Positions 36,443-63,747 are shown, counted from the first letter of the stretch. The stretch: 64,000 bases of DNA from an uncultured Candidatus Saccharibacteria bacterium (GCA_964655995.1 CAZZPK010000003.1:22960-86959), one strand, 5' to 3'. The notes: generated by a model not told the origin, from the letters alone. Program-made: numbers and translations.

Positions 36443-36464
36443 TTATCATAGCTATTAATTATAT

Positions 36465-36500
36465 TCCTAACTTGAGACGGTCGTCTGAGATTAGGAAAGA
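36465..36500 (+). repeat. direct repeat copy 1 carrying the AGACGGTCGTC motif
   Basis: tgagACGGTCGTCtgagATTAGGAAAGAG, compared with 37058..37090 aaACGGTCGTCaaaaGTTAGGAAAGAG. Confidence 0.5.
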
Positions 36501-36501
36501 G

Positions 36502-37107
36502 CTAAGAAAGATTAAATATTTTCTTTAACCAGCTATCATTTTCTAAATAAGATACTTCCATATACAACACCTCTTTGCCAATATGATAGTTAGCCTTTAA
36601 TAGGGCTACTACTTCTTGGCAATCGTATGGATAAACCCAAACACTATTTTGGAGCCTTATTAAGCCTAAGTGCTGAAACCAAGCTCGCAATTTGTTTCTA
36701 GTGGATCGTTTCCATTCCTTAATATCAAAAATAATAATTCGATATTTACCATCCCAGCGTTTTGGTTTATTTATGGTTAATTTTTCTAACTCATATTCTT
36801 TTAACTTAATTTTGCCACTTTTGGTCAATCGGACAACTTTCTGTCTTTTACTATTATTTTCTATTTTAACTAAACCCTGTTTCTCTAGGCGGCCAACCAC
36901 TTGATTAATGTAATTCCTTTTCTTTGATTCTTGTTTTGGTAGAAAACGGAGTAATTTTAGGCAATTTGGTGCCACTACTGCTAAAGCAATAATCCCAGTT
37001 AGGCCAATAACACTAAGAATTATTTGTTGATAGTCTGAATTTGGTGATCTCATACCTATTCCTAAGTATAAACGGTCGTCAAAAGTTAGGAAAGAGGTGT
37101 TTGACAA
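36502..37107 (-). CDS. membrane-anchored PaaX-like wHTH regulator with a Cas2/VapD-fold middle domain, lacking the PaaX C-terminal domain
   Basis: N-terminal TM, wHTH (QVVGRLEKQGLVK...VVRLTKSGKIKL), then RWDGKYRIIIFDIKEWKRSTRNKLRAWFQHLGLIRLQNSVWVYP. This resembles the E. coli PaaX segment PPWDGKWLLLLSEGLD...LIWQGFG and the Cas2 consensus (YDI...R.Q.SVFE). AT-rich. Confidence 0.5.
   Translation of the reverse strand: MSNTSFLTFDDRLYLGIGMRSPNSDYQQIILSVIGLTGIIALAVVAPNCLKLLRFLPKQESKKRNYINQVVGRLEKQGLVKIENNSKRQKVVRLTKSGKIKLKEYELEKLTINKPKRWDGKYRIIIFDIKEWKRSTRNKLRAWFQHLGLIRLQNSVWVYPYDCQEVVALLKANYHIGKEVLYMEVSYLENDSWLKKIFNLS
37058..37090 (+). repeat. direct repeat copy 2 carrying the ACGGTCGTC motif
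   Basis: See copy 1; together they bracket the PaaX-like gene. Confidence 0.5.
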
Positions 37108-37162
37108 AAATTTAATAAAAAGGTTTACTTAAATTGGAAAATAAACAGGAGGGTCTCTAAAT

Positions 37163-37426
37163 ATGAGATTTACAGCTTTACTGATCGGGCGCTACTGGGT
37201 CGGGTTAATAAAGGAGCAGTCCCATCTAGTTGTTATTATCTTGGTACTTGGGTATCTAACCGTTGGTATTGCTCGGGTGCTCGAGTATGGTTGGGGCTCA
37301 ATTGGCGCCGGCCTCTTGGTTTATCTGATCTTTGTTCCTTTACTTTCTTCGTCTTGGAATTGGTTTTTAAGAAGGCTGATCCTTTATTGTCAAAAAAGAT
37401 CAGATGTTTTGGGCAATCAACAATAA
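37163..37426 (+). CDS. small membrane protein
   Basis: Ribosome-binding site aggagggtc; two hydrophobic helices. Confidence 0.4.
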   Translation: MRFTALLIGRYWVGLIKEQSHLVVIILVLGYLTVGIARVLEYGWGSIGAGLLVYLIFVPLLSSSWNWFLRRLILYCQKRSDVLGNQQ

Positions 37427-37437
37427 GGAGAAAAAAA

Positions 37438-37653
37438 ATGACGTTTTTGGCAATGATGTCATCGGGCTTGTGCTTGATGGCGATTTACCTCTCGATCTAT
37501 GTGCCGCAAAGCGGCGGGCTGATCGGGCTGATTTTGACCATTGCGATCCTAAACATTATGGCCTTGTGGGCATCACTGAAGCTGGGCATCGATTATCCTG
37601 GTCGGCCCCTCAATCTGACTGAGGTGATTGGCCAACGGTTTTGGGTGATGTAG
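37438..37653 (+). CDS. small membrane protein
   Basis: Ribosome-binding site aaggagaaaaaaa; MTFLAMMSSGLCLMAIYLSIYV... The track ORF 37291..37653 starts further upstream in the same frame. Confidence 0.4.
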   Translation: MTFLAMMSSGLCLMAIYLSIYVPQSGGLIGLILTIAILNIMALWASLKLGIDYPGRPLNLTEVIGQRFWVM

Positions 37654-37881
37654 CAAATCAAGCTCCGAGACGAGTCCACTGTCTTGGTGCTATCGCAGGG
37701 GCAAAAAATTTTATGCCTCTTGGTCCCTGGCGATTACGGCAATATGCCGGATTTCCCACTGGCCTCACTGGTAGAGGTAGTGGATCCGGGGCATAATCAA
37801 AAGCCTCAGATCAAGCAGGTCCACATAGACCTGCTCACCTAAAAGAAACTGGTTTTCTTGCGGATGGCCCAGCCATCCGCT

Positions 37882-38457
37882 TTATTTTTTGGTGACTAAC
37901 GACTGGGCATTGCCTTGGAGGCCGGTGGCGTCGCCCTCGAGACCGGAGACATTGCCCGAGAGGCCTGAGACATCCCCGGTAATATTGGTCACAATACCAG
38001 CAATGCGGCTAACATCGCCTTTAATATTAGTGACCGTGCCGGAGATATTGGTGGCATCGCCCGTGAGATCATCGACATTACCCACCAGGTCGCTGACATT
38101 GCCTTTTAGCTTGCTGGCATCGCCGCGGATATTGCTGACCGAGCCGCGGATAAAACTGACATTGCCCAAGAGGCCCGAGATATCGCCGGAGATATTGCTC
38201 ACATCGCCACGGAGAGGGGTTACGTCACCTTTAATGTTGCTAACATCGCCTTGGATTTTGGAGACATCGCCCAAAATGCCGGTAATATTGCCGCGGATGG
38301 CGCTGGCATCGCCGGTAATTTTATGGAGCGAGACGTCGCCGTAAATACCGTGGACGCTGCCGCGCAAATTGGCAAAATCGCCCCAGACATTGGGGTGGAG
38401 ATTGGTAACATTTTTGGTGTTAAGCTGGGTTTTGTTGGTGCTTGGTTGTAAGGTCAT
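37882..38457 (-). CDS. 7-residue tandem-repeat protein (about 22 consecutive GD[VAI]S.I. heptads)
   Basis: GDVSNIKGDVTPLRGDVSNISGDISGLLGNVSFIRGSVSNIRGDASKLKGNVSDLVGNV...; the DNA has a 21-nt periodicity across about 37930..38400. Confidence 0.55.
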   Translation of the reverse strand: MTLQPSTNKTQLNTKNVTNLHPNVWGDFANLRGSVHGIYGDVSLHKITGDASAIRGNITGILGDVSKIQGDVSNIKGDVTPLRGDVSNISGDISGLLGNVSFIRGSVSNIRGDASKLKGNVSDLVGNVDDLTGDATNISGTVTNIKGDVSRIAGIVTNITGDVSGLSGNVSGLEGDATGLQGNAQSLVTKK

Positions 38458-44677: not shown

Positions 44678-46543
44678 TTACATCAGATTAGTAGGTTCAA
44701 TGTCAATTTGCCACGCCGGTTTTAGGCCGTTGAGTATTGCGAGTAATTGCTCATCAGGCCAGGCCGCCGGCTCAATTTTAAGTAAAAAATTATTCGGCTC
44801 GTAAAAGATGGCGCCCCACGAGGCTAAAGCGGTCTCGGCTTTAACGCCATCGTTTTTATGTTTGGGATTGACGAGTGTGCCTTTAATTAATAATTTAAAC
44901 GGCGGGTAAGCGAGGCGCTCCCGCAGGGAAAGCTCTTGGCGGTAAAAATCTAAAATATTGCCCTCGAGCGCTTGTTTAAATAAAGCGGTGTCGGGGTGCC
45001 TGGTCTGGATCAAAAAGCGGCGGCTGGCTCGGCTTTTTAAATCAATCAACAAATTAAAAATGCGCTCATTCATATTGTAATTTGGTACCATAAACAATGA
45101 GTCAATGCCTATCACCGCCACGAGCGGTATGGCTGCCGGCAAATAATTAAGCGCCTGCTCGGTGCCAACCACAATGCCGCCCGGCTCGGCCAGGGCGGCT
45201 AAAGCGGCTTTGATTTTAGCCGGGGTGGGAGTATGGTCGGCATCCACGATATTTACCGTCCGCTCGGGGAAAGCTTGGCTCAAAGTTAAAGCGACGCGCT
45301 CGCTACCGATCCCCAGGGTGGCCAGCCGCCAGCCGCCGCAGACGGCGCACTTGTCCTCGATTTCCCTTTTGGCACCGCATTGATGGCAGTAAAAGATATT
45401 TTTTACCGGAGTTTGGCGGTGGACCACTAGCGGCGCCGCGCATAGCGGACAAACAACAGTGGTGCCGCAGTCATTGCAAATGGTGGTTGGAGTGAGGCCT
45501 TTGCGGGCGGTAAAAATAAAAGCGCTGCCGCCGCTTTGGCAAATCTCGTTTATTTGCTCTAGAGTCTCAGCGGCGACCACGGCAAATTTTTTTCGGTCGT
45601 GGTCGCCGCTTTGGTCGCGTCCGTCAATAAGCTTAAGCTTGGCCGGCGAGATCACGCGGTGATTCAAAGTCCCGGCCGGAGCGTAATTTTTTTGCTCGGT
45701 TTGGTACAAAGCATCGAGTGAGAGCGAGCTATCGCCAAGTAGCAATTGCCAGCCGGCGGCGCGGGCCAAATGTTGGATCACGCGCCTCAAATCCAAAAAA
45801 GGCGGCAGAAATTGTTTGTAGCCGGGGCTGTTTTCTTGATCCAAAATTACCAGGCCGATATCGGTTCGGGGTAAAGATAAAATCAGCGGGCTGCCGATCG
45901 CCACTATCGGTTTGACCGCCTTGAGCGCATTATTCCAAACAGAGCGGGTTTTGGCTTTAGTTTCCTGGCCGGTAAAAATCTGGGCGTAATCCTCCAGGCC
46001 GCGACTTAAAAACGGCGCCACTTGGGCGATGTCGGCCGAGCCAGGCAAGACAATTAAAACGGATTGATTTTTTGCCAGCATCTCGCGGATCATCCCTTTG
46101 TAAGAGGCGAGTCGCTCGCCGGGCGGTTGTTGGAGGACTTTGATTTCGGTTTTAAATACTGCCGGCTCGGCCGCCACATCAATTGGCTTTTTGGTTTTGC
46201 GTTCCATCTTTTGATCCAAAATAGCCGCCGGGACCAATGATTTCAAAATTAAACCGGGCGCCACGCCGTACCACTTGCTCGCGCTTTTTACGCCGGCGAC
46301 AAACGAGGGTAAAAATAAACCCGGACTGATAACGCGCTTGATTTTTTTGAGCGTAAAGTCGCTCTGCCTTAGCGACTGCTTAATGGCGCTGGCCTCTTTG
46401 GCCGCCAAAACTAAGGCGGGTACCTCTCGATGGCCCAATGGGACGGCCACAATCGCTCCCGGACTTACCGGCTCTTTGGTAAAATAAGCCAACTCATCAA
46501 AGGGGAGCGAGCTGGCGATAGGCGTAACCGTGAGGACGTACAT
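44678..46543 (-). CDS. priA: primosomal protein N' (replication restart helicase)
   Basis: Helicase motifs plus two Cys4 zinc modules (CNDCGTTVVCPLCAAPL...CHQCG...CAVCGG). Confidence 0.8.
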   Translation of the reverse strand: MYVLTVTPIASSLPFDELAYFTKEPVSPGAIVAVPLGHREVPALVLAAKEASAIKQSLRQSDFTLKKIKRVISPGLFLPSFVAGVKSASKWYGVAPGLILKSLVPAAILDQKMERKTKKPIDVAAEPAVFKTEIKVLQQPPGERLASYKGMIREMLAKNQSVLIVLPGSADIAQVAPFLSRGLEDYAQIFTGQETKAKTRSVWNNALKAVKPIVAIGSPLILSLPRTDIGLVILDQENSPGYKQFLPPFLDLRRVIQHLARAAGWQLLLGDSSLSLDALYQTEQKNYAPAGTLNHRVISPAKLKLIDGRDQSGDHDRKKFAVVAAETLEQINEICQSGGSAFIFTARKGLTPTTICNDCGTTVVCPLCAAPLVVHRQTPVKNIFYCHQCGAKREIEDKCAVCGGWRLATLGIGSERVALTLSQAFPERTVNIVDADHTPTPAKIKAALAALAEPGGIVVGTEQALNYLPAAIPLVAVIGIDSLFMVPNYNMNERIFNLLIDLKSRASRRFLIQTRHPDTALFKQALEGNILDFYRQELSLRERLAYPPFKLLIKGTLVNPKHKNDGVKAETALASWGAIFYEPNNFLLKIEPAAWPDEQLLAILNGLKPAWQIDIEPTNLM

Positions 46544-46633
46544 GCCGCCATTATAGCGAGGCCGTGCTTACTTATCCACATTGCATTTAAGGGGCAAAAT
46601 AAGGCTTAACGGCCGAATGTTATTATTAAGTAA

Positions 46634-47749
46634 ATGAACATCGCTGATGAGCTTTTTTATAATGGGAAAAAGTATGTCAAACTAAACGTGGCTAGTAAAC
46701 GTTTAGGTTTGTCTGACGAAGCGCTCGATAAGGAGTGCCGCCAAAAAAAGCTCGAGGCCGAGCGTATCGCCGACCAATGGTTTGTCTTGGAGTCGTCGTT
46801 GTCGCGCCTGTTGCCAACCGTGAACCAATATCACCCGGGCTATTTGCAATCAAGTACCGTTACTTTGGCCAAGTTGGGTTCGGCATTAACCGGCTTGATT
46901 GGCGTTTTAGCTTATCTTACTTTGCTCTCAATTATGCCCAGCCAGTTGTTAAATCTGCCCGAGTTGGCGCATTACCAATTGCTGGCCTCAAGCAATGAGG
47001 CTCTCAAGCAGGGAGCCATTACTATCGATCAAACTGCCGGCCGCCTGGCTTGGGGAGCAGAGCAATTGGCTTTTACCAGCGCCTCGGCTTTAACCGCGGG
47101 ACAAATGCTTTTAATCGAGGCGGCGGCGAGCGCCGGCGATCAAGCGCTTTTGCTCGGTTATCAAAGTTTATTCTGGTTTGAGTCGCGGCTCGTTTTGGCC
47201 GAGGCATTGCCAGCCGATCTTTTGTTGACCAAAGAACGGCTGGTGACTGCCGCCGCTCTGACCACCAATTTAGGAAGCACGACCGCAATTGAAATGGCGG
47301 CGCGTTTTAGTGATCAGGTTTTGGCTATTGCCGGCTGGTTTGTTGATGGCGTAGCGCGATTATGGGATAAAATTGTTTTAAATTGGTCGCGCTTTTTGGG
47401 CAAAGAGGAGGCGTTGCCGGTTAATGTTGAAGCTCCGATGCCAAACTCAAATATCAATCAAATCCAAGCCGATATCAAAGAGATTAAAACCGGTATCAAT
47501 GAGATTTTGCGCCGCCTGCCGGCAGGCGGCGGCGCTCCCGCGCCGTCTGCTTTGCCTAGCCAGGGCATAGTGGTGGCGCCACTAGCCAGCACCACTCCCG
47601 AGGCGCTAAAGAGCCGGGTGGCGGAAATGTTTTCTGATCAGGTTAAGGTTAATGTCGATCCGTCGGGCAAAGCCGGGGTGGTGACACCCATTTTCCGCGA
47701 TCGGACCGGCGATGATTACATCTTTGTTTTGACGCCGATAAATCAATGA
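46634..47749 (+). CDS. hypothetical protein with an N-terminal excisionase/MerR-like HTH followed by a TM segment
   Basis: KKYVKLNVASKRLGLSDEALDKECRQKKLEAERIADQWFV is an HTH_17-like pattern; the hydrophobic stretch is LIGVLAYLTLLSIM. Confidence 0.45.
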   Translation: MNIADELFYNGKKYVKLNVASKRLGLSDEALDKECRQKKLEAERIADQWFVLESSLSRLLPTVNQYHPGYLQSSTVTLAKLGSALTGLIGVLAYLTLLSIMPSQLLNLPELAHYQLLASSNEALKQGAITIDQTAGRLAWGAEQLAFTSASALTAGQMLLIEAAASAGDQALLLGYQSLFWFESRLVLAEALPADLLLTKERLVTAAALTTNLGSTTAIEMAARFSDQVLAIAGWFVDGVARLWDKIVLNWSRFLGKEEALPVNVEAPMPNSNINQIQADIKEIKTGINEILRRLPAGGGAPAPSALPSQGIVVAPLASTTPEALKSRVAEMFSDQVKVNVDPSGKAGVVTPIFRDRTGDDYIFVLTPINQ

Positions 47750-48597
47750 TTGTTTTACGCCTATTGTTAGCGTTTTTTCTCGGATTTGTTTTGGCGGCGC
47801 CGGCGCAGGCGGCGCCGCCTGGTTTTGTCTCAATTACGCCGACCAAGCGCGAGATCACTGTTAATCCCGGCGAGACGCGCCTAGTTGAATTGACTGTCGA
47901 AAGCACCTTGGACCAAGCTATCTCTTTTGAGCTCCGGGTCTCCGATTTAATTGCCGGCGAACACTCTTTAATTAATGAGGTAACGGCGCCTGACACCATT
48001 TTTACCTTAGCGCCCGGGCAGTCGCTCTCGGTGCCGATCGAGATCAAAATGCCAGCTACAGCTTACCCCGGGACGCGTCATGGCCAGATCAGTGTAGTCA
48101 TCAAAAATCAATCAGCTAATCTCGGTAATGCCCAAGCGGCAGTCACTACTGCACTTAACTCATTGCTGTTTATCCGCGTGCCGGGAGAGGTTAAAGAATC
48201 AGGCCGTCTGGATCGCTTTGGTCTTTTGGGCGGCTCGCCGCTGCTTAACGCAGGGGAGCGGACTGGTTTTTACATCGCTTTCCATAATGATGGTAACAGT
48301 TATTTAAATCCTTACGGCTTGATCAAGATTTTAAATTGGCGTGGCCGAGAGCTCGGTTTTGCCGTTATTGATCCATGGTACGTTTTGCCGGGGACAACGC
48401 GTATCCGCGACATACCGGATCTGATTTTGCCGGCCGGTATCTACCGCGCCACACTCGATCTTAACCGAGGCTATGACAATGTCATCGACTCCAAGCAAAT
48501 TTGGTTTGCCGTGTACCCGCTCTGGGCCAAATACTTGGTGGCCGGCATCGTTGTTTTACTAATCCTGGCGGCAATTTATCGTATAATTAGAGTATGA
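47746..48597 (+). CDS. cell-surface protein, DUF916/DUF3324-like (signal peptide, two beta-rich domains, C-terminal TM anchor)
   Basis: Signal peptide; C-terminal TM LVAGIVVLLILAAIY; the layout resembles DUF916-DUF3324 proteins of Gram-positive WxL (csc) clusters. Confidence 0.5.
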   Translation: MIVLRLLLAFFLGFVLAAPAQAAPPGFVSITPTKREITVNPGETRLVELTVESTLDQAISFELRVSDLIAGEHSLINEVTAPDTIFTLAPGQSLSVPIEIKMPATAYPGTRHGQISVVIKNQSANLGNAQAAVTTALNSLLFIRVPGEVKESGRLDRFGLLGGSPLLNAGERTGFYIAFHNDGNSYLNPYGLIKILNWRGRELGFAVIDPWYVLPGTTRIRDIPDLILPAGIYRATLDLNRGYDNVIDSKQIWFAVYPLWAKYLVAGIVVLLILAAIYRIIRV

Positions 48598-49352
48598 TGG
48601 GACGATTATTCATACTAATATTGGCAATGGTGCTGGGGTCGTCACTGACTCCGTTTGCTCTTGCTTATGTCGCCTCGAGCACCAATTATCGCATCCAAAG
48701 CGACAGTATTAATTTTGCCGGCGGTCGCTCCACCTCGACAAATTTTGTGATGGAAGACACGGTCGGGGAGGTCGGTACCGGCACCTCAACCAGTGCCAGC
48801 TATAATTTACATGCTGGTTATCAGGCAATGCAGACCGGCGGGACCATCTCCATTAGCGCACCAAGCGATGTTACTTTAAGTGGGGCCATTACTACCGAGT
48901 CCGGCGGCCAAGCTAATGGTAGCGTGGTTTGGACGGTAATTACCGACAACTCCGCCGGCTATACTTTGGCGATTAAGGCTGCTGCCAGTCCGGCCTTTGT
49001 TTCCAGTAGCAATAGTTTTGCCGATTACACGCCGGTTAGCGGCTCGGATCCTGATTACACTTGGTCGGTTGATGATAACGTCAAAGAATTTGGCTTTACA
49101 CCGGAGGGGACTGATATCGTGGCTAAATACAAAGATAACGGCGCAAGTTGCAATACCGGCAGTGGCAATACAGCAAGCGCCTGCTGGGACGATTTAACCA
49201 CCAGCGATCAGACCATTAGCCAGCGGGCCTCGGCTACCGGTGGCAGTGGGGTTAGCACCACGGTGCGTTTTAGGGCCGAAGCCGGGGCCAGCTCCGCACC
49301 GGCCGCCGGCACTTATACCGCCAGCATCACCGTGACGGCGACAGCGCTTTGA
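48594..49352 (+). CDS. secreted Gly/Ser/Thr-rich protein with a WxL-domain-like C-terminus
   Basis: Signal peptide; the C-terminal ...VRFRAEAG...APAAGTYTASITVTATAL resembles the WxL C-terminal signature (GTYTxxLTWTL). Confidence 0.45.
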   Translation: MMGRLFILILAMVLGSSLTPFALAYVASSTNYRIQSDSINFAGGRSTSTNFVMEDTVGEVGTGTSTSASYNLHAGYQAMQTGGTISISAPSDVTLSGAITTESGGQANGSVVWTVITDNSAGYTLAIKAAASPAFVSSSNSFADYTPVSGSDPDYTWSVDDNVKEFGFTPEGTDIVAKYKDNGASCNTGSGNTASACWDDLTTSDQTISQRASATGGSGVSTTVRFRAEAGASSAPAAGTYTASITVTATAL

Positions 49353-49364
49353 TATTTTTGATTT

Positions 49365-51326
49365 ATGAGACGCTTTCTTTTTTTACTTAGTCTGTTTATT
49401 TTGATTTTTGGCGTGGCGGCCGATAGTTGGGCAATTACCGACTCGATCAATGTCAGTGGGACGGTAACTACCGAGGATGATGGTGGTGGTAGTGATCCGG
49501 TTTACGGCTGTACCGATCCGGCCGCGACTAACTATAATCCTGACGCTACTGCTAGTGATGGTAGTTGCCAGTATCCCACTTTAGTGCCGACGGTTATGAA
49601 TTTTGAAGCGGTTTACGACGAAGACAATGATGAGGTCGATTTAACATGGGTTAATCCTAGTTTTGCCGAATTTGCCGCGGTGCGCATTGTCCGCTCTACC
49701 ACTTTTTTCCCTAACTCGCCCAATGAGGGGACTTTAATTTATGATGGACCGGGAGAAGAAGCGGTGGATGATAATGTGAGTCTGGGCAGCACTTATTATT
49801 ACACCGCTTTTGTCCGTTCCACCGCTAACGAGTATTCAGCCGGGGCGGTGGCGCAGGTCACTATCCCAACTGAGCCGCCGTGCGAGGGCGATGAGTGCGA
49901 TCCAGCCGATCCGTTTGAGGATTTGCCCGAGGGAGGCGGCGGCGGATTTGAAATCGGCGGATTTATCTTTTTCCAACCTGGAGAGGAGCCGCAATATCTG
50001 CGGGCCGGCGGCGAGACCATTTTGCTCCGCGCCGACAAAACTACCACTATTTATTTGCCGTACGATCAGGCGCCGGAGGTGTTAAAAACCATCGGCGTTA
50101 CGGTGATGAGTCCAATTAATCCTAAAAGCAGCTTTTCTTTCCTGTTGCGATTGACTCCAGATAAAAAAGGTTATGCCGCGACGATCGCGCCGCTCGGTGC
50201 GAGCGGCAAGTATCCGGTGGCTATCTATGTGATCAACTATCAAAATCAGAGCCTCAAGCGTTTGACCGGCAATTTGGAGGTCCAGGGTGGTGCGGCTATG
50301 GTTGGACTGGTGCCGGCGACAATTATTGAGCAAACCGTGGCTCCATTAGTGGTGGGGACCGGTCTACTCATCGGCTTAGGCCAGGCCTTGGTGCCGCTGG
50401 CCGCGGTTACTTCCTGGTATGATATTTACTTGATTATTTTGCGGGCTCTGGGCGCGCTCTCGGGCTACTTTGGTCTGCGTAAAAAATACAAGCCGTGGGG
50501 AACGGTTTATGATGCGGTGACCAAACAGCCGATTGATCCGGCTTATGTCACTATCGAGGCGAATGGCAAAGAGATCTCTAGCGCCATTACCGACATTGAG
50601 GGGCGGTATGGCTTTTTCCTCCCACCTGGCACCTATACTCTTAAGGCCGGCAAGACTCATTATCAATTCCCCTCCGCTAAGTTGGCGGGGCGTTCGGCCG
50701 ACGAGCTCTATAATAATCTCTATTTTGGCGAGCCGTTTGAGACCAAGCCGGATGAGGTGATTGACCGCAACATACCCCTCGATCCAATCGGTTTTGACTG
50801 GAATGAGTTTGTTAAAAGCCAGTCCGCCACCTTGGTGGCCAATAGCAAAAAGGAGTTAAGTCGAGCTCGGATTCATAAAAGCATTTACGCCGTGGGCTTG
50901 CTTACCGCCGTGGGCAGTGCTGTATATACCCCCAGTTGGCTCTCATTTAGTTTATTTGGGGCCTATGTTTTGCTGGCGATTTTTGAGCGAGTTTGGGGGA
51001 TTAGGCGCCATGTGCGGACTATTACTTGGAGCGATACTAAATTGCCGCTACCGTTTGCTATTGTTCGCGTCTCGATCCCGGATTTGAATCAGGAGGTCAA
51101 GCATGTGGTGGCCGATCAGCTGGGGCGCTTTTACGTCTTAGTGCGACCGGGGGTTTACAGTTTGTCGGTGGAGGAGAAGCAAGCCGACGGCTCTTACAAA
51201 AAAGTGTATCAGTCGCCGCCAACCAACTTACCCCGCGGTACTTGGGACAGCGACCTTAAACTCAATCGTAATGTCTTACCACCCGAGCCAGCGTCAGTTA
51301 TTTCTACTCCTAACTTGACTAAATAG
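49365..51326 (+). CDS. large surface/membrane protein (signal peptide, FN3-like domain, two carboxypeptidase-regulatory-like beta-sandwich domains, several TM helices)
   Basis: FN3-like segment (DLTWVNPSFAEFAAVRIVRS...YYYTAFVRS) and CarbopepD_reg-like segments (GTVYDAVTKQPIDPAYVTIEANGKE...GRYGFFLPPGTYTL; GRFYVLVRPGVYSL). Confidence 0.55.
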   Translation: MRRFLFLLSLFILIFGVAADSWAITDSINVSGTVTTEDDGGGSDPVYGCTDPAATNYNPDATASDGSCQYPTLVPTVMNFEAVYDEDNDEVDLTWVNPSFAEFAAVRIVRSTTFFPNSPNEGTLIYDGPGEEAVDDNVSLGSTYYYTAFVRSTANEYSAGAVAQVTIPTEPPCEGDECDPADPFEDLPEGGGGGFEIGGFIFFQPGEEPQYLRAGGETILLRADKTTTIYLPYDQAPEVLKTIGVTVMSPINPKSSFSFLLRLTPDKKGYAATIAPLGASGKYPVAIYVINYQNQSLKRLTGNLEVQGGAAMVGLVPATIIEQTVAPLVVGTGLLIGLGQALVPLAAVTSWYDIYLIILRALGALSGYFGLRKKYKPWGTVYDAVTKQPIDPAYVTIEANGKEISSAITDIEGRYGFFLPPGTYTLKAGKTHYQFPSAKLAGRSADELYNNLYFGEPFETKPDEVIDRNIPLDPIGFDWNEFVKSQSATLVANSKKELSRARIHKSIYAVGLLTAVGSAVYTPSWLSFSLFGAYVLLAIFERVWGIRRHVRTITWSDTKLPLPFAIVRVSIPDLNQEVKHVVADQLGRFYVLVRPGVYSLSVEEKQADGSYKKVYQSPPTNLPRGTWDSDLKLNRNVLPPEPASVISTPNLTK

Positions 51327-51343
51327 ATATAGGGGTGTATAAT
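51315..51343 (+). promoter_or_regulatory. perfect-consensus sigma70 promoter (TTGACT, 17-nt spacer, TGn TATAAT)
   Basis: ttgact-aaatagatataggggtg-tataat. Confidence 0.6.
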
Positions 51344-51367
51344 TAAAGGTAGAAGGGAGGTGAAGAT

Positions 51368-51601
51368 ATGCTTGGTTGGGAAATAGTTTTTGAAGATAGC
51401 GCGAAAAAAACAGAAAGGATGAAGGTTCCTGGCGGTTGGTTGGTTTTAACTAGCACATTTTTACCACCGACTGATCTTCATAAGCCTGTTCCTCCAATTG
51501 CTCAGACTTTTCTGCCTGATCCGAAACACAATTGGCAGAGCAAATACTGGAGAGAATATGGCGAACCACCACCGTTAGATAACGAACCTGTGCAGGACTA
51601 A
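51368..51601 (+). CDS. small hypothetical protein (cassette 1)
   Basis: 77 aa with ribosome-binding site gggagg; its own promoter and terminator. Confidence 0.4.
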   Translation: MLGWEIVFEDSAKKTERMKVPGGWLVLTSTFLPPTDLHKPVPPIAQTFLPDPKHNWQSKYWREYGEPPPLDNEPVQD

Positions 51602-51603
51602 TT

Positions 51604-51658
51604 CCCGCCCGGAGACAACGACCCAAATCGTCTGTCACGAGGCGGGTTTGTTGTTTTT
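51604..51658 (+). terminator. conserved intrinsic terminator module, copy A
   Basis: cccgcccggagacaacgacccaaatcgtctgtcacgaggcggg followed by tttgttgttttt. Confidence 0.6.
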
Positions 51659-51736
51659 GCCTAAAATGTAAACTAATTAGACGGTCGTCAAACTATTTCA
51701 CATTCTCAATCGTAAACGGTCGTGAACAGTTGGGAT

Positions 51737-51765
51737 GTTTAGAATTTGACAAGATAACTTTATGG
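51737..51765 (+). promoter_or_regulatory. perfect-consensus sigma70 promoter (TTGACA, 17-nt spacer, TGn TATAAT)
   Basis: ttgaca-agataactttatgggtg-tataat. Confidence 0.6.
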
Positions 51766-51806
51766 GTGTATAATCAAAGTTAGAAGTGTTAACAGGAGGA
51801 GCGGAC

Positions 51807-52046
51807 ATGAAGAAAATTGTCTTGTTTTTTGTGGTAGTAATTCTGGTAATGGTGTTTTACACTGGTATTGAAAAGGAGCCAGCTTACCAGTATCACATTA
51901 CCACCTGGGATGGTCGTGAGGCTATCGGTAAATTGAATCGCGATCAAACCTATACATTTTTTCGATTTTATAGGGTGGGAGAAGTGGTTTACATCGACCA
52001 GGAGATTGCCACTTTTCCAGCTGCAGAAGCGGCCAAACTCCATTGA
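51807..52046 (+). CDS. small single-TM protein (cassette 2)
   Basis: Ribosome-binding site aggagg; MKKIVLFFVVVILVMVFYTG... Confidence 0.4.
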   Translation: MKKIVLFFVVVILVMVFYTGIEKEPAYQYHITTWDGREAIGKLNRDQTYTFFRFYRVGEVVYIDQEIATFPAAEAAKLH

Positions 52047-52106
52047 CCCGCCAACGGACAACGACCCGAATCGTCTGTCGCGAGGCGGGTTTGTTGTTTT
52101 TATTTT
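52047..52106 (+). terminator. conserved intrinsic terminator module, copy B
   Basis: cccgccaacggacaacgacccgaatcgtctgtcgcgaggcgggtttgttgtttttatttttc; about 90% identical to copy A. Confidence 0.6.
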
Positions 52107-52161
52107 TCTATATTTTAGTCAAGTTGCCCCCAAGGCCATAATCGGCCATAATGGCGGGGAA

Positions 52162-53175
52162 ATGGCTATCAACTTTAAACCTAAGTTGGGCATCGATTTG
52201 GGGACGGCTAACACCCTGGTTTTTGTGCCGGGGCAGGGGATAGTTTTAAACGAGCCCTCGGTGGTGGCGATCTCCGAGATCGATAATAAGGTGGTGGCGG
52301 TAGGGGTGGAGGCCAAAGAGATGGTGGGCAAAACGCCCGACAGCATCATCGCTTACCGGCCGATGAAGGATGGCGTCATTGCCGATTATCGCGTTACCGA
52401 GGTGATGCTTAAATATTATATTTCCAAAGCGCTCGGCAAATGGAATATTTTTAAACCCGATGTCTTAGTCTCGGTGCCGGCCGGCGTCACCTCTACCGAG
52501 CGGCGCGCGGTGATCGAAGCGGCGGTTAAAGCCGGCGCTAAAAATGCTTATGTGGTTAAGGAGCCGATTTTGGCGGCGATTGGCGCGGGCATACCCATTT
52601 ACGAGGCGCATGGCCACATGGTTGTTGACATTGGCGGCGGTACCACCGATGTGGCGGTAATTTCTTTGGGCGGTATTGTCGCCTCGACCTCGGTCAAGTA
52701 TGCCGGCAATAAAATCGATCAGGCGATTGCCGATTACATCAAAAAAACTTTCAATTTGGCAATTGGCGACAAAACGGCCGAGGAGGTTAAAATCGCCATC
52801 GGCAGCGCGGTGCCGGTAGAGGAGGAGCTGGTTTACACTATTAAAGGGCGCGACTTTATGACCGGCCTGCCGCGCTCGGTAGAGGTTAAAACTAATGAGA
52901 TTTGTCGGGCCATCGACAATGAGCTCCGCGAGATGATCAAGGCGATTAAAACTGTCTTCCATGACACGCCGCCCGAGCTCTCGTCCGACATTATTGACCG
53001 GGGCATTACCATGACCGGCGGCTCGTCCCAATTGCGCCATTTGCCCGAGCTGGTGTATCGCCGTACCGGCGTTAAGGCGGTGTTGGCCCCCGACCCGCTC
53101 TATTGCGTGGTTAAGGGGACGGGCATTGCGCTTGAGCATTTGGATACTTACAAAAAAAGCATTATCTCAAAGTAA
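52162..53175 (+). CDS. mreB: rod shape-determining protein MreB (paralog 1)
   Basis: GIDLGTANTLVFV and the actin-fold motifs. Confidence 0.85.
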   Translation: MAINFKPKLGIDLGTANTLVFVPGQGIVLNEPSVVAISEIDNKVVAVGVEAKEMVGKTPDSIIAYRPMKDGVIADYRVTEVMLKYYISKALGKWNIFKPDVLVSVPAGVTSTERRAVIEAAVKAGAKNAYVVKEPILAAIGAGIPIYEAHGHMVVDIGGGTTDVAVISLGGIVASTSVKYAGNKIDQAIADYIKKTFNLAIGDKTAEEVKIAIGSAVPVEEELVYTIKGRDFMTGLPRSVEVKTNEICRAIDNELREMIKAIKTVFHDTPPELSSDIIDRGITMTGGSSQLRHLPELVYRRTGVKAVLAPDPLYCVVKGTGIALEHLDTYKKSIISK

Positions 53176-55582: not shown

Positions 55583-56836
55583 ATGTTGCAATCCAAGCTG
55601 TTTACCAAAGTCCGCCGAGAGGACCCCAAAGACGAGCTGGCTAAAAACGCCAAACTCCTGATCCGCGGAGGTTTTATTGCCAAGTCGCTGGCGGGGGTTT
55701 ATGTGCTCTTGCCTTTGGGCTTGCGGGTGCTCGATAAAATCAGTCAGATTATTCGCGAGGAGATGGACAAAATCGGTGGCCAGGAGCTCCGTTTGGCCGC
55801 GCTCCAGGATCCAGCGGTGTGGCAGGCCTCCGGCCGCTGGAGCGACGAGGTGGTCGACAATTGGTTTAAAACCAAATTAAAAAATGATACCGAGCTCGGT
55901 TTGGGTTTTACCCACGAGGAGCCACTGGCCAAATTGATGGCTGATCATATCCAGTCATACCGCGACCTGCCGGCGTATGTCTATCAAATCCAGACCAAGT
56001 TCCGCAATGAGGCGCGGGCCAAAAGTGGCATTTTGCGCGGGCGCGAGTTTTTGATGAAGGATTTGTACTCATTTAATGTCGACCAGGCCGGCCTGGACGC
56101 TTTTTACGATCAAGCCAAAGAGGCTTATCGACGAGTGTTTGACCGGGTGGGCATCGGGGCGCAAACTTTTTTAACTTTTGCTTCAGGTGGTACCTTCAGC
56201 AAATATAGCCACGAATTCCAAGCGGTATGCCCGGCCGGCGAGGACACCATTTACTTGTCGCGCGATAAAGAGATCGCGATCAACGAGGAGGTTTACGGCC
56301 CTGATGTTTTGGCCGAACTTGGTCTTGAGGAACAAGAATTGGTTAAAGAGACGGCGATCGAGGTTGGTAATATTTTTAAATTAGGTACCAAATATTCTGA
56401 GGCTCTGGGTTTGACTTACAGCACCGAGACCGGCGAGCGCCTACCGGTGGTGATGGGCAGTTACGGCCTAGGGGTAACGCGGCTGCTTGGCACTATTGCC
56501 GAGTTGACCGGCACCGATAGCGGCCTTAATTGGCCCAAGGCGGTGGCACCGTTTAAAGTCCATTTACTTGCTTTGGGCAATGATGAGGCGGTACACGCCA
56601 AGTCTCGCGCTTTATACGAAACGTTGGTCGCCCAAGGGGCAGAAGTGCTTTTTGATGACCGCGAACTTAGCGCCGGGGAAAAATTTGGCGATGCCGATTT
56701 GATTGGCATTCCAGTGCGCTTGGTGTTAAGTGCCAAAACCGCCGCGCTTGAGGCGGTGGAGTGGTTTGACCGCTCTCAAGGCAAGACGGAGTCGGTGCCC
56801 ATTAGCGAGGTACCGGCCCGCATTTTAGCTTTATGA
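55583..56836 (+). CDS. proS: prolyl-tRNA synthetase (short form)
   Basis: IRGGFI...AGVYVLLPLG and class II motifs. Confidence 0.75.
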   Translation: MLQSKLFTKVRREDPKDELAKNAKLLIRGGFIAKSLAGVYVLLPLGLRVLDKISQIIREEMDKIGGQELRLAALQDPAVWQASGRWSDEVVDNWFKTKLKNDTELGLGFTHEEPLAKLMADHIQSYRDLPAYVYQIQTKFRNEARAKSGILRGREFLMKDLYSFNVDQAGLDAFYDQAKEAYRRVFDRVGIGAQTFLTFASGGTFSKYSHEFQAVCPAGEDTIYLSRDKEIAINEEVYGPDVLAELGLEEQELVKETAIEVGNIFKLGTKYSEALGLTYSTETGERLPVVMGSYGLGVTRLLGTIAELTGTDSGLNWPKAVAPFKVHLLALGNDEAVHAKSRALYETLVAQGAEVLFDDRELSAGEKFGDADLIGIPVRLVLSAKTAALEAVEWFDRSQGKTESVPISEVPARILAL

Positions 56837-56853
56837 TTAAACGCTGGTATGAA

Positions 56854-57888
56854 ATGTTTTCCCACGATCTGGGGATCGACTTGGGCACAGCCACCACCTT
56901 AATTTACGTTAAGGGGCACGGTATTGTCTTGCTTGAGCCCTCGATTGTGGCTTTAAATCAAAAAACCGGCCGGGTGGTGGCGGTGGGGGCCGATGCCAAC
57001 AAAATGATCGGCCGGACGCCGGCGCACATCAGCGCGGTTAAGCCACTCTCCGGCGGCGTGATCTCCAATTTTGAGGTGGCCGAGGAGATGCTCGCTTATT
57101 TTATGAAAAAGGCCGTGGCGCAAATACCCGGTAAAATATTTTTCCGCCCGCGGGTGGTGATCAGCGTCCCTTCGGGCATTACCAATGTTGAGCGTCGCGC
57201 AGTGCGCGACGCGGCGCGCAATGCCGGCGCCCGCACCGTCCATATTATTGAAAAGCCGATGGCCGCCGCTTTCGGCGTCCGTTTGCCGGTGCATGATCCG
57301 GTGGGGACGATGTTGGTAGATATCGGCGGCGGTACCGTCGATATTGCGGTGTTGTCCTTGGGCGGTATCGTCAAGTCGCGCAATCTCCATGTGGCCGGCG
57401 ATCATCTTAATCAGGATATTATTTCTTATATCCGGGACGAGTTTAAAATTTTATTGGGCGAGCGGACGGCCGAGGATGTCAAAATGGCCATTGGCTCGGT
57501 GATTAAGGGCAAAGAGCCGGAGGAGGCCTCAATTCGCGGCCGCGATCTGGTGACCGGCCTGCCGCGCGAGGTTATCGTTACCGACAGCGATATCCGCGAG
57601 GCGATCATGCCCTCGGTTAATTTATTAATTGAGGCGATCAAAGAGGTGTTGGAGACCACGCCGCCGGAGGTGATCGCCGACATCATGCATCGAGGGCTCA
57701 TTTTAGTGGGTGGCGGGGCTTTGTTGACGGGTCTCCCTGCATTGCTCGAGAAAGAGCTTGGCCTGCCGGTAATCCTGGTTGACGAGCCGACGACGGCCGT
57801 AGTCCGCGGCACCGGAGTTATCCTTGAGGATATTAACGCTTATCGTGATATTCTACTTGATAATGAAGACCAATTACCAGCGCGATAA
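56854..57888 (+). CDS. mreB: rod shape-determining protein MreB (paralog 2)
   Basis: GIDLGTATTLIYV and the actin fold. Confidence 0.8.
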   Translation: MFSHDLGIDLGTATTLIYVKGHGIVLLEPSIVALNQKTGRVVAVGADANKMIGRTPAHISAVKPLSGGVISNFEVAEEMLAYFMKKAVAQIPGKIFFRPRVVISVPSGITNVERRAVRDAARNAGARTVHIIEKPMAAAFGVRLPVHDPVGTMLVDIGGGTVDIAVLSLGGIVKSRNLHVAGDHLNQDIISYIRDEFKILLGERTAEDVKMAIGSVIKGKEPEEASIRGRDLVTGLPREVIVTDSDIREAIMPSVNLLIEAIKEVLETTPPEVIADIMHRGLILVGGGALLTGLPALLEKELGLPVILVDEPTTAVVRGTGVILEDINAYRDILLDNEDQLPAR

Positions 57889-61091: not shown

Positions 61092-62549
61092 ATGGCCTCA
61101 CTTGAAGAATTGCGCGCGGAGCGGCTTAAAAAATTAGCGGCCCTTAAAGCGGCCGGCATTGAGGCGTATCCAATCTCGAGCGGACGTACTGATGAGATTG
61201 CCGAGATTTTAAAAAAATTTGACCGTTTGGCAGGTAAAAGGGTGGTGGTGGCCGGCCGGGTGCTCTCGGTGCGTGGCCAAGGGGCGCTCGTTTTTGCGGA
61301 CTTAAACGACGGCACCGGTAAAATCCAGGCACTTTTTAAAGAGGGGGAGATTAGCGGCGAGCAGTTTAATTTATTTAAAGACACAGTAGATATTGGCGAC
61401 TTTATTGAGGTCGGTGGCAGTTTAATGACGACCAATCGTGGGGAGAGGTCGGTGGCAGTGGAGAGCTGGGCCATGCTTACTAAAAGTCTGCGCCCCTTGC
61501 CCGACAAGTGGCACGGCTTGGCCGATGCCGATGAGCGCTATCGCCATCGCTACTTAGACAGCCTAGCTAACCCTGAGGTCAAAGAGCGTTTTGTAGTGCG
61601 CTCTAAAATAATCTCGTTGATCCGTAAATTATTAGACAAAGACGGCTTTTTGGAGGTGGAGACGCCGATGCTCCAGCCTCAGCCGGGCGGGGCCACCGCG
61701 CTGCCTTTTGTGACGCATCATAATGCTTTGGATATTGATTTGTTTTTGCGCATCGCGCCGGAACTTTATTTAAAACAGATGATTATTGGCGGCTTCCCTC
61801 AAGTGTATGAGGTATCGCGCAACTTTCGCAACGAGGGGATCGATGCCACGCATAATCCGGAGTTTACGATGCTTGAGTGGTATCGGGCCTACAGCGACGC
61901 CAAGACGGAGCAAAAATTTGTCGAGAAGTTTATTAAAACCATAGTTAAAACGATTACCGGCGGCACAACGCTTACTTACGACGGGCAAGAAATTGATTTT
62001 GGCGCTAAGTTTAATAAAGTCTCCTATCTTGATCTGCTTAAGGGGGCAGGGGTAGCTAAGCCGCTTACGGCGACGCTCGCGGAGGTCGCCGATCAAGCGC
62101 GCGAGCTTGGGGTAAAAGTGGAGCCAGCCGATAGTAAGGCTAAAATTTTAGATAATATTTATAAAAAAGTATGCCGGCCCAAGATTATCCAGCCGACTTT
62201 TATTGTGGAGTATCCGGTGGATTATTTGCCGCTGGCCAAGCGCTCGGCTAAAAATCCTAACTTGGTAGACGCCTTCCAATTAGTGGTTGGGGGGATGGAG
62301 TTGGTTAAAGCCTTCTCCGAGCTTAATGATCCGGTGGATCAGCGCGAGCGTTTTGCCGAGCAGGACAAAGTTAAAGCCGGCGGCGACGCCGAGGCCCAGA
62401 CGACCAATGAGTCCTTCCTCGAGGCGCTCGAGCATGGCTTGCCGCCCACCGGCGGCGTAGGTATCGGCCTGGATCGTTTGACCATGCTCCTCACCAACAC
62501 CAAAAACATCCGTGAGGTAATCTTTTTCCCCACTTTACGGCCAAGGTAG
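61092..62549 (+). CDS. lysS: lysyl-tRNA synthetase (class II)
   Basis: OB-fold N-terminus, FLEVETPMLQ, GGMEL...NDP, and the GLPPTGGVGIGLDRL motif. Confidence 0.9.
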   Translation: MASLEELRAERLKKLAALKAAGIEAYPISSGRTDEIAEILKKFDRLAGKRVVVAGRVLSVRGQGALVFADLNDGTGKIQALFKEGEISGEQFNLFKDTVDIGDFIEVGGSLMTTNRGERSVAVESWAMLTKSLRPLPDKWHGLADADERYRHRYLDSLANPEVKERFVVRSKIISLIRKLLDKDGFLEVETPMLQPQPGGATALPFVTHHNALDIDLFLRIAPELYLKQMIIGGFPQVYEVSRNFRNEGIDATHNPEFTMLEWYRAYSDAKTEQKFVEKFIKTIVKTITGGTTLTYDGQEIDFGAKFNKVSYLDLLKGAGVAKPLTATLAEVADQARELGVKVEPADSKAKILDNIYKKVCRPKIIQPTFIVEYPVDYLPLAKRSAKNPNLVDAFQLVVGGMELVKAFSELNDPVDQRERFAEQDKVKAGGDAEAQTTNESFLEALEHGLPPTGGVGIGLDRLTMLLTNTKNIREVIFFPTLRPR

Positions 62550-62580
62550 AATTTTAGGTAGAATTAAAATCACTTGTTTT

Positions 62581-62636
62581 TATTTGTTTAAAAACTATAC
62601 CATCTAGCCGCGATCGCTGGCAGATGGAATAATTTA
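62581..62636. repeat. REP-like palindrome R3 plus shared flank (55-bp unit)
   Basis: aaactataccatctagccgcgatcgctggcagatggaataatttaaaacaataaa, identical to 63693..63747. Confidence 0.65.
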
Positions 62637-62660
62637 AAACAATAAACCAGCTAGTTTGCA

Positions 62661-63620
62661 CTAGCTGGTGACAAAATCGCTCGAAAGAATTGGTAGCCAT
62701 TCATGTTCGGCGACGATAAGATCAACCACTCTTTTTGTCTCATATTCAGAAGCCTCATTAAAGTCATAAAGAACAATGACTTCATATGAGAATTCCTCAG
62801 GTGGATCAGTAAACAGGAGGCCGAACAAGACAACACCATCACGCATTTTTTCATTCAGACTTAGGTCAGGATACTCAAAATGGGCAATCTCAAGATGGTG
62901 CCAAAGAGTATCTATGCAGCTCCTGTGGGAACCAAATCCCCAAGACATTCGCCATTCTAAGAGGCTGGTATGAATAGCAAACCCCTTAACACTATTACCT
63001 AGAGAGACAGCATATCCATTGCTCTCTAGTAATTTGTCAGCCAATCTCTTCTTTTGTATTTTAGACAGGGAGTTTATTTTTTCCAGTTGTTGTTGGTACT
63101 CTTTATTTACTATAGTTGCAGGTGGTGATAATTTAGCTAAGTTGCCCGATCGCCAGCTTGCCTGCAAGGACCTTGCCCATTCTTGTAGCTCAGGATCATG
63201 ATGCCTCAGACTCAACGCGCTTCCTGTTTTTTGAGGACATAAATCATCTTCATGTCGGTCTAAAGGTTTGACGAAAATGAGCGGTACTCCTGGCAAAAGT
63301 TCTTTTTGGAGATAATTCACGCCCTTCTCAAACTCAAGTTCGTTTGTTGCCATTATTGCACCAATGAGTCGGCCGCAGTCTCTGGCTTCTTTGATTCGAT
63401 TGAGTTTTCTGACTAACCCGCGGTTTCCTCTGGTGTCTTTCAGATCAAACCAGGATTCAACAATTAGGACATCAAGCCCCAATCGTTGCCTTAATACTAG
63501 GGCGAGTATATCCCTGTCTGTATTATTGGTGTAAGTAAAATCATTAGAACGCTCGAGTATCAAAATCAGCGGTCTATTATCCATCTGCCCTCCTCCATTT
63601 TGTTTTTGAGGTGCTTCCAA
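62661..63620 (-). CDS. hypothetical protein (AT-rich, bracketed by the 55-bp perfect direct repeats)
   Basis: 319-aa ORF, about 40% GC; no confident domain assignment. Confidence 0.45.
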   Translation of the reverse strand: MEAPQKQNGGGQMDNRPLILILERSNDFTYTNNTDRDILALVLRQRLGLDVLIVESWFDLKDTRGNRGLVRKLNRIKEARDCGRLIGAIMATNELEFEKGVNYLQKELLPGVPLIFVKPLDRHEDDLCPQKTGSALSLRHHDPELQEWARSLQASWRSGNLAKLSPPATIVNKEYQQQLEKINSLSKIQKKRLADKLLESNGYAVSLGNSVKGFAIHTSLLEWRMSWGFGSHRSCIDTLWHHLEIAHFEYPDLSLNEKMRDGVVLFGLLFTDPPEEFSYEVIVLYDFNEASEYETKRVVDLIVAEHEWLPILSSDFVTS

Positions 63621-63692
63621 AACGGATTATGTACTTTTTGTATAAAAAGTCAATATTGTGTCATGGCCCAATACCAAAAACATCTATATTCT

Positions 63693-63747
63693 AAACTATA
63701 CCATCTAGCCGCGATCGCTGGCAGATGGAATAATTTAAAACAATAAA
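63693..63747. repeat. REP-like palindrome R4 plus shared flank (55-bp unit)
   Basis: Identical to R3. Confidence 0.65.

Follow-up and report, generated by a model that had tools for sequence, protein, structure and literature searches.

In a 64,000-nucleotide stretch of DNA (the window) from an uncultured Candidatus Saccharibacteria bacterium (GCA_964655995.1, CAZZPK010000003.1:22960-86959), four genes at positions 46634-51326, which we call g1 to g4, appear to form a minimal, usher-less operon for chaperone-assisted, donor-strand surface assembly. We favour, with moderate confidence, the view that this cluster is a divergent Paceibacteria variant of the Pam pilus system of the candidate phyla radiation (CPR), with a chaperone from the superfamily to which the WxLIP proteins of Firmicutes WxL clusters belong. 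The operon most likely builds a small cell-surface stalk by the swapping of strands, as in bacterial pili, and it probably serves an episymbiotic bacterium for adhesion or contact at the cell surface. A preliminary description of this DNA had already proposed a module for cell-surface display or adhesion, which we consider the best reading.

The gene cluster and its chaperone-like protein g2

The open reading frame (ORF) listing gave exactly four co-directional ORFs across the cluster, all on the plus strand. g1 (46634..47749; 371 amino acids, aa) encodes a bitopic membrane protein, g2 (47746..48597; 283 aa) a membrane-anchored, PapD/WxLIP-like two-domain protein and putative chaperone, g3 (48594..49352; 252 aa) a secreted PamT-like subunit and g4 (49365..51326; 653 aa) a membrane anchor or stalk protein. 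This bears out the earlier picture of four tightly spaced genes running divergently from priA (44678..46543, minus strand). The 90-nucleotide intergenic region between priA and g1 (46544..46633), the presumed promoter region of the operon, contains weak sigma-70-like matches. The g1/g2 junction is a 4-nucleotide ATGA overlap, g2 and g3 share a 4-nucleotide overlap of the ATGA type, and the gap between g3 and g4 is 12 nucleotides. A scan for consensus promoters and terminators found them to be no commoner within the cluster than in shuffled sequence. With junctions this tight or overlapping, and nothing that speaks against it, the genes look co-transcribed, in agreement with the original proposal. 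Within the sequence coding for the g2 signal peptide (AAPAQAAPP), positions 47793-47819 comprise a 10-bp all-GC hairpin, followed by TGGTTTTG. At -27.8 kcal/mol this hairpin is only marginally stabler than shuffled sequences (z -2.0). The Ala/Pro codons probably gave rise to it incidentally, but it could attenuate transcription between g1 and g2.

The g2 protein consists of a signal peptide (aa 1-22), a DUF916-like immunoglobulin (Ig) domain (~27-146), a second Ig domain (~150-257) and a transmembrane helix (259-282). Both the signal peptide and the C-terminal transmembrane segment were seen in a hydrophobicity scan, and in the AlphaFold2 model (predicted local distance difference test, pLDDT, 94.3) the signal peptide is followed by two beta-sandwich domains and a helix at the C-terminus. 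The protein had been likened to the DUF916-DUF3324-transmembrane (WxLIP) proteins; profile and fold comparisons uphold this architecture for the first domain, and by fold it probably holds for the second. The hidden Markov model (HMM) PF06030 (DUF916/WxLIP_PGBD) was matched by 85 of 112 g2-family members (best E 2.9e-11), the window copy scoring 22.1 bits (E 1.6e-4), under the gathering threshold (GA) of 27.3. The family profile identified EfmWxLIP1, the WxLIP of E. faecium, among the PDB sequences (E 4.6e-7), where a single-sequence search with g2 gave no match. The top Foldseek matches of the g2 model were the WxLIP structures 9i25_C (E 4e-13) and 9i1y (E 1e-12), with an alignment that covered both domains (241-265 columns); next came the chaperones Caf1M, CfaA, FimC, DraB, CupB2 and CsuC (E 1e-9 to 1e-8, TM-scores of 0.5-0.59). 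HMM support for DUF3324 (PF11797) was lacking, as none of the 112 family members matched. Both the sequence profile and the modelled fold indicate that g2 is a WxLIP homologue.

The g2 family also extends to the Pam system. On the Saccharimonadales contig L085, the genes for PamT (233 bits) and two Pam pilins (130 and 105 bits; cutoff 55) immediately precede that for the family member P0230 (profile E 8e-39), indicating that the chaperone of genuine Pam pilus operons falls within the family. Outside the CPR, the g2 profile matched a single protein, P0241 from Sphaerisporangium rubeum (350 aa, 'Peptidase' in UniRef; E 1.7e-4, 52% coverage), which hints that WxLIP/g2-like proteins may also be present in Actinobacteria. 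The 'PGBD' proteins that cultivated Paceibacteria express at high levels (PMC10936435) were considered as g2 homologues and rejected: the domain described for them is of the PG_binding_1 type, and neither WxL nor DUF916 occurs as a term in the supplements.

A PamT-like subunit, a putative membrane anchor and the co-varying strands

The hydrophobicity scan confirmed the signal peptide of g3 (aa 1-24, ALA/YVASS, the slash marking the cleavage site), in line with the earlier claim that the protein is secreted; g3 itself carries no anchor to the membrane or the cell wall, and Ser, Ala, Thr and Gly make up 51% of its residues. The mature protein comprises an N-terminal triple S-x-N-Y-x-I motif (aa 25-80; 48666..48833, plus strand) and a C-terminal Ig-like domain of pilin type (aa 81-252; 48834..49349, plus strand), which ends in a G-x-Y-x-A-x-x-T-x-T strand. 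It matched the NCBIfam model NF058579 ('CPR-type pilus protein PamT') with 34.3 bits (E 1.5e-8), as did 75 of 76 g3-family members (best E 2.3e-14). The PamT signal sits in the triple motif: the 58-aa segment alone gave E 1.2e-6 and mature g3 E 1.9e-5, the beta-domain alone did not match NF058579, and in an hhalign comparison with the PamT of L085 only the triple motif aligned (aa 28-82 with 33-87, E 1.5e-4). This motif is the best-conserved part of g3 (conservation 0.73 vs 0.65 for the beta-domain). In the monomer model the triple motif is disordered (pLDDT <50), and the beta-domain (aa 81-252) has a pLDDT >95.

In the Foldseek search with g3, ~35 of the top 50 matches were chaperone-usher pilins, with weak E-values (best 9e-3). 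CsuA/B, the FimH pilin domain, CupE, FimG and CfaB were the best structural neighbours, and 8aur, 7ueg, 9h8b and 9ikk, from the group of TasA/TapA, archaeal bundling pili and cannulae, appeared at lower ranks. Single-sequence and profile searches of the PDB sequences with g3 gave nothing meaningful. The C-terminus of g3 had been thought to resemble the WxL signature. This was not supported: no Pfam family, WxL included, matched g3 or its 76 relatives even at E<=1, no WxL chain was among the matches of the fold searches, and the C-terminal strand, GTYTASITVTATAL, has no Trp. Membership of g3 in the Pfam families WxL or SCPU was therefore rejected (0 of 76 family members). Judging from its sequence and model, g3 has the architecture and hallmark motif of PamT together with a fold like that of donor-strand pilins, and it seems too divergent for a PamT orthologue.

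The g4 protein is composed of a signal peptide (aa 1-23), a donor-like strand with a poly-Gly stretch (24-43), a Cys motif (49-70), an FN3-like region (~75-170), a second beta domain (~190-308), a membrane segment (323-371), a CarboxypepD_reg-like domain (375-487), a transmembrane hairpin (503-543) and a second CarboxypepD_reg-like domain (~550-630); its signal peptide and internal hydrophobic segments were visible in the hydrophobicity scan. The mature N-terminus, ITDSINVSGTVTTEDDGGGS (49434..49493, plus strand), is an alternating-hydrophobic strand followed by a Gly linker, and we propose it as a donor strand. In the window copy the strand is ITDSINVSGTVT, followed by GGG, with D26 and V34 near-invariant in the family, and in most orthologues, too, mature g4 opens with a strand of this type.

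Paralogues of g3 also bear a strand of this type. In ~21 related loci, one to three such paralogues (g3', 208-236 aa) are encoded just upstream of g2; they lack the triple motif and start with a single alternating-hydrophobic strand, e.g. VTDNVVVTLTVD or AIYDQFTISQTVT, reminiscent of the donor strand at a classical pilin's N-terminus. None of the g3' paralogues matched the NCBIfam Pam models. Within one genome, the strands of g3' and g4 form pairs such as DQFTISQTVT/DSFTVSQTVT, SAVSLTVDEE/SSVSLTVNDP and SDAVVITQVV/SDKVIITQDV. The mean best 10-mer score between g3' and g4 was 24.9 in the same genome, 17.4 +/- 6.9 across genomes and 13.5 after shuffling, and the observed total was reached in 0 of 20000 permutations. 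By its donor-like N-terminal strand that co-varies with the N-terminal strand of g3', g4 appears to resemble the PamR anchor.

Residues 379-434 of g4 matched PF13620 (CarboxypepD_reg) in two stretches with 47.1 bits (GA 32.3), and 21-25 of 26 g4 orthologues matched PF13620 or PF13715, with CarbopepD_reg_2 in 25 of 26. FN3 had no Pfam match in the window g4, and fn3 was matched in some orthologues. Thus, of the initial view of g4 as a polytopic protein with FN3-like and carboxypeptidase-regulatory-like domains, the regulatory-like part is supported, whereas the FN3 assignment has no Pfam match in the window copy. The ectodomain (Cys motif, FN3-like region and second beta-domain) is variable across the family. 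The most conserved part is the first CarboxypepD_reg/transthyretin-like domain with its conserved extension (aa 375-487; 50487..50825, plus strand), the invariant columns lying mostly within W378...K484. Family-wide, lysine plus arginine amounts to 3.8-5.0 in the segments that flank both CarboxypepD_reg-like domains versus 0-0.7 elsewhere; by the positive-inside rule this suggests that both domains are probably cytoplasmic and that aa 503-543 form a transmembrane hairpin. The Nomurabacteria-type g4 is shorter and lacks the cytoplasmic domains; its FN3 passes the Pfam threshold, and its only transmembrane segment is at the C-terminus. In layout it seems closer to PamR as published. Single-sequence and profile searches of the PDB sequences with g4 gave nothing meaningful. 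The Cys-bounded segment of the ectodomain (aa 49-70; 49509-49574) is a conserved motif, C-T-D-P-x-A-x-N-Y-N-x-x-A-x-x-D-D-G-S-C-x-Y, which is doubled in the loci L020, L035, L037 and L039 and is covered by no Pfam model match.

The first gene, g1, encodes a cytoplasmic N-terminal region weakly resembling an excisionase-like helix-turn-helix (HTH), a transmembrane segment (aa 83-106), an extracellular, Ala/Leu-rich stalk that varies, and a C-terminus that is conserved. Conservation in the family alignment is limited to the C-terminal ~60 aa, which hold an extracellular beta-strand motif, GxVVxP...FSDxVxVx[LVF]D...GVITPVF...YLFVLTP (aa 307-371; 47552..47746, plus strand). An HMM of this motif matched in 54 of 86 loci; each time the match lay at the very C-terminal end of the gene that immediately precedes g2 or g3'. 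The window copy of g1 had no Pfam, NCBIfam or PDB-sequence match. The protein had been described as HTH plus transmembrane; the single transmembrane segment was found, but the HTH is weak: HTH_17 was matched weakly in 8 of 32 orthologues, the window copy not being among them. A small g1-like ORF in L051 matched HTH_17 at E 8e-4, and in Nomurabacteria-type loci a small ORF with HTH and transmembrane segment follows g4 in place of g1. g1 may act as a regulator, an initiator or an anchor.

Conservation and variants of the module

The order g1-g2-g3-g4 recurs in ~70 of 85 loci from species-representative genomes of Paceibacteria/Parcubacteria, with median intergenic gaps of 1-5 nucleotides and frequent overlaps, an arrangement far beyond chance. 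The module had been considered unexpected in this genome. With its order conserved in ~70 species it is not an odd insertion, and comparative sequence data mark it as a syntenic core feature of the lineage. In 25 loci the flanks are those of the window, with fmt-def-priA upstream and mreB downstream; in Lloyd-, Nomura- and Zambryskibacteria-type loci the module is kept and the flanking genes differ. At least 780 homologues of g3 were found at 50-60% identity, all in metagenome-assembled genomes (MAGs) of the Patescibacteria/Parcubacteria group. Searched against 1.84 billion cluster representatives, the g3 profile retrieved 2168 with E<=1e-3, of which 867 had E<=1e-10, and a scan of species-representative genomes detected a relative in 256 of them. 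The closest relatives are Ca. Vogelbacteria (g3 identity 71-79%), the nearest species-representative MAG being at 71%; the taxonomic placement is based on them.

In-frame fusions of g2 and g3 were present in 5 genomes (L008:7119-8735, L020:3871-5526, L022:7167-8729, L032:188-1819 and L035:3411-5015; 520-577 aa) and in 16 of 149 top family representatives (P0131 and 15 others). At the junction, the transmembrane helix of g2 is followed by a short basic linker, the g3 signal peptide and an AxA site, a topology in which signal peptidase would free g3 beside g2, implying cleavage of a polyprotein. Among the fetched loci the fusions were restricted to those without g3'.

Other relatives carry g3 as a C-terminal module behind a passenger. 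Such proteins account for ~20 of the 149 top representatives and reach 2187 aa, their passengers being ConA-like lectin (Laminin_G_3) domains, DUF2341 and FN3 arrays; two of them are on contigs too short for useful genomic context. Large secreted proteins with lectin-type heads and, at the C-terminus, an entire g3 module (both triple motif and pilin-like domain) are P0243, P0274, P0304, P0324, P0341 (1205 aa), P0262 (2187 aa) and L087:4533-6350, and seven more representatives (including P0255, P0277 and P0377) have an insertion of 200-340 aa between the triple motif and the beta-domain. In L087 the order is g1, lectin-headed g3, g3', g2 and g4, with the strands NDPVVVTQAV in g3' and SDSVDVTQTV in g4, which by analogy would be the layout of an operon for tip-adhesin, shaft, chaperone and anchor. 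A gene of the 23S_rRNA_IVP family (four-helix bundle; L087:6415-6813) lies between the lectin-headed g3 and g3' in this otherwise intact module.

Downstream of the cluster, two mini-cassettes are located between g4 and mreB (51312-52101). They have in common a near-consensus sigma-70 promoter (44 nucleotides, 80% identical, with 11/12 and 12/12 hexamer matches) and a 55-nucleotide terminator-like hairpin (89% identical). Their ORFs differ (51368-51601, 77 aa; 51786-52046, 86 aa with a transmembrane-like N-terminus); both were without a Pfam match, and the cassettes gave no Rfam match. Because mreB directly follows g4 in relatives such as L002 and L003, this ~800-nucleotide stretch appears to be an insertion. 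Two MreB-like genes are found within 5 kb downstream of the cluster (52006-53175 and 56833-57888), the first of which is over-extended at its 5' end (TTG start; likely start near 52160); L003 has the same MreB-like pair, with mreC after the second copy. Elsewhere in the window, a low-GC stretch (22001-24000; 0.364 vs ~0.51 for the window) with high GC skew covers the ORFs 22000-22575, 22837-23592 and 23710-24525, possibly an island gained by horizontal transfer; at 36001-38000 and 62001-64000 the GC content dips to a lesser extent.

Known systems, proposed mechanism and alternatives

The Pam system was described in Ca. Mycosynbacter amalyticus (Troman et al., bioRxiv 10.64898/2026.03.03.709456). 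It comprises the tip protein PamT, the PapD/FimC-like chaperones PamC and PamD, both carrying a transmembrane helix at the C-terminus, and the anchor PamR with an N-terminal beta-strand, FnIII domains and a transmembrane anchor; WxL, DUF916 and Paceibacteria are unmentioned in that preprint. The cluster shares with it a monoderm CPR host, Sec-exported parts, the absence of an usher, a PapD-like two-domain chaperone with a C-terminal transmembrane helix whose family has a member in a true Pam operon, a subunit of ~250 aa with the N-terminal triple motif of PamT and an Ig-like C-domain, and, in g4, what may be a counterpart of PamR, a membrane-anchored FN3-type protein with an N-terminal strand. 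It differs in that the two-domain pilins PamA/B/E (NF058581, Pam_pilin_C) have no counterpart among g1-g4, the C-domain of g3 has no detectable sequence similarity to Pam_pilin_C, and g3 reaches 34 bits against a cutoff of 240. Moreover, g1 and a polytopic g4 with cytoplasmic CarboxypepD_reg-like domains are undescribed for Pam, the genomic context is priA/def/fmt and mreB instead of ATP synthase, and the Paceibacteria host class is unreported in the preprint.

The WxL (csc) clusters of Firmicutes consist of a WxLIP (DUF916-DUF3324-transmembrane) and small and large WxL proteins (PMC10599100). Here too a WxLIP homologue (cf. PDB 9i1y and 9i25) adjoins the gene of a small secreted partner, relatives encode large proteins with a passenger and a C-terminal docking module that are analogous to 'long WxL' (PMC10599100), and in both cases it is proposed that the partners interact through a donated strand, which completes the beta-sandwich of the partner protein. 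In contrast to WxL clusters, g3 has neither a WxL domain nor Trp-x-Leu motifs, the g2 family has no DUF3324 HMM match, the window encodes one partner protein instead of two, and the donor-strand-bearing g3' and g4 have no described counterpart.

In chaperone-usher pili (especially archaic Csu/CupE, SCPU), the chaperones match g2 in fold and the pilins are the best structural neighbours of g3, the N-terminal strands of g3' and g4 look like N-terminal extension donor strands, and the variants with lectin head and pilin domain recall FimH and PapG. The differences are the lack of an outer membrane and of an usher, the membrane-tethered chaperone, the integral-membrane anchor and the absence of detectable sequence homology; no usher-like gene was found in the cluster or among its neighbours. 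CPR bacteria have no outer membrane. With TasA/TapA, archaeal bundling pili and cannulae the cluster shares usher-independent beta-strand complementation of Ig- or jelly-roll-like subunits, but those systems have no PapD-like chaperone, and the fold similarity of g3 to them is below that to chaperone-usher pilins. In sum, the locus shares the chaperone family and the PamT motif with Pam and is without the defining Pam pilins, it has a WxLIP without WxL proteins, and its likeness to chaperone-usher pili is one of fold only.

Whereas the data show the folds, homologies, fusions, synteny and strand co-variation, we infer binding, strand exchange, the topology of g4 and any adhesive function. The parts could work together as follows. 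g2, g3 and g4 would be exported by Sec, as all three have AxA signal-peptidase sites (AQA/A, ALA/Y and SWA/I, respectively), and g2 would be held in the membrane by its C-terminal helix. There, its Ig-like domains, apparent in the model, would cap the incomplete Ig fold of g3. The free N-terminal strand of mature g4 (ITDSINVSGTVT and the Gly linker) would then displace g2 by donor-strand exchange and, as the position of the motif and the co-variation suggest, g3 would end up presented by the membrane-embedded g4, at the tip of its FN3/Ig stalk. In other lineages, one to three g3' may polymerise between g3 and g4, and g3 can bear a lectin head; the window version would be a short 'tip-on-anchor' fibril and not a long pilus.

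Several observations weigh against assigning the cluster to a Pam-like donor-strand system. The strand exchange, like any complex or filament, is putative. g3 lies far below the PamT equivalog cutoff (34.3 bits vs 240), no g2-family protein matched the NCBIfam Pam models, and the comparison of the g3 C-domain with the Pam pilin C-domain was not significant (hhalign E 0.067); sequence homology of these two domains was not supported, three motifs aligned by eye being anecdotal. The co-variation test takes in some close relatives, and its data points are not fully independent. The CPR_Pam_pilin_C domain was found in none of g1-g4, and the 64-kb window has a single g3-like ORF; as no pilin there combines a donor strand with an acceptor groove, a long filament is unlikely. 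Furthermore, g3 is 50-60% identical across orders, which is unusually conserved for an adhesin, and the model offers no role for g1 or for the conserved, probably cytoplasmic domains of g4.

Could g2 instead be a permanent anchor that holds g3 by strand complementation, as a WxLIP holds WxL, with neither hand-over nor polymerisation, and with g1 and g4 merely co-expressed? We regard this static WxL-type complex as the main rival, albeit an unlikely one. The structure that g2 matches best is that of a WxLIP stably bound, in the crystal, to a 'long WxL' (9i25), the window has one g3 and no shaft pilin, the 1:1 fusions of g2 and g3 are confined to loci without g3', and the passenger proteins with a g3 module parallel the 'long WxL' proteins (PMC10599100). 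However, g3 has no WxL domain, and the co-varying donor-like strands of g4 and g3' are hard to explain without strand exchange. In addition, true Pam operons, the filaments of which have cryo-electron microscopy structures, contain members of the g2 family, and L087 has the full layout of tip, shaft, chaperone and anchor.

A weaker reading, to which we assign little probability, is that of an envelope or cell-shape module, a trans-envelope complex tied to MreB-directed morphogenesis in which the cytoplasmic domains of g4 touch the cytoskeleton. It would account for the presence of mreB downstream of g4 in ~25 loci, immediately so in several (L002, L003) and with mreC/mreB2 further on, for the probably cytoplasmic position of the most conserved part of g4, and for the high conservation of g3, which fits a structural protein more than a host-specific adhesin. 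Yet Lloyd-, Nomura- and Zambryskibacteria-type loci keep the module without adjacent mreB or priA, the Nomurabacteria-type g4 has no cytoplasmic domains, the lectin-headed g3 variants point to ligand binding, and no direct link to MreB was found. That four unrelated membrane and secreted proteins are adjacent by chance and form no functional unit is hardly conceivable: g1 and g4 do lack annotated relatives of known function, but the order is kept in ~70 species despite changing flanks, starts and stops overlap, and g2-g3 fusions exist, so this explanation is effectively refuted.

Beyond the donor-strand operon that we favour, a further-reaching idea, which we consider distinctly improbable at present, is that the cluster is a core, lineage-wide Paceibacteria apparatus in which g4 and g1 couple the donor-strand tip or fibril to the cell interior, that is, a contact-sensing or host-engagement machine, and also the ancestral usher-less form of WxL/WxLIP clusters, Pam pili and perhaps chaperone-usher pili. 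Contact at the g3 tip would then be transmitted through the polytopic g4, with its cytoplasmic beta-sandwich domains, and the membrane-tethered HTH protein g1.

In the literature we found no account that links DUF916/WxLIP to CPR pili or that describes this module in Parcubacteria. In both sequence and structure the operon bridges the chaperones of the Pam system and the WxLIP (DUF916) proteins found in the WxL clusters of Gram-positive bacteria, so that three separately described surface systems are tied together and the largest CPR class is reached. The g2:g3 pair, the N-terminal strand of g4, the lectin-headed g3, g1 and the cytoplasmic domains of g4 are the targets for experiments. How the huge, mostly uncultured Parcubacteria/Paceibacteria group attaches to its hosts is essentially a blank, hence the interest of the operon: our results suggest that the donor-strand principle just found in the Pam pili of Saccharimonadia extends, pared down to four genes, across Paceibacteria, in no fewer than 256 genomes of species level and ~2,000 protein clusters.

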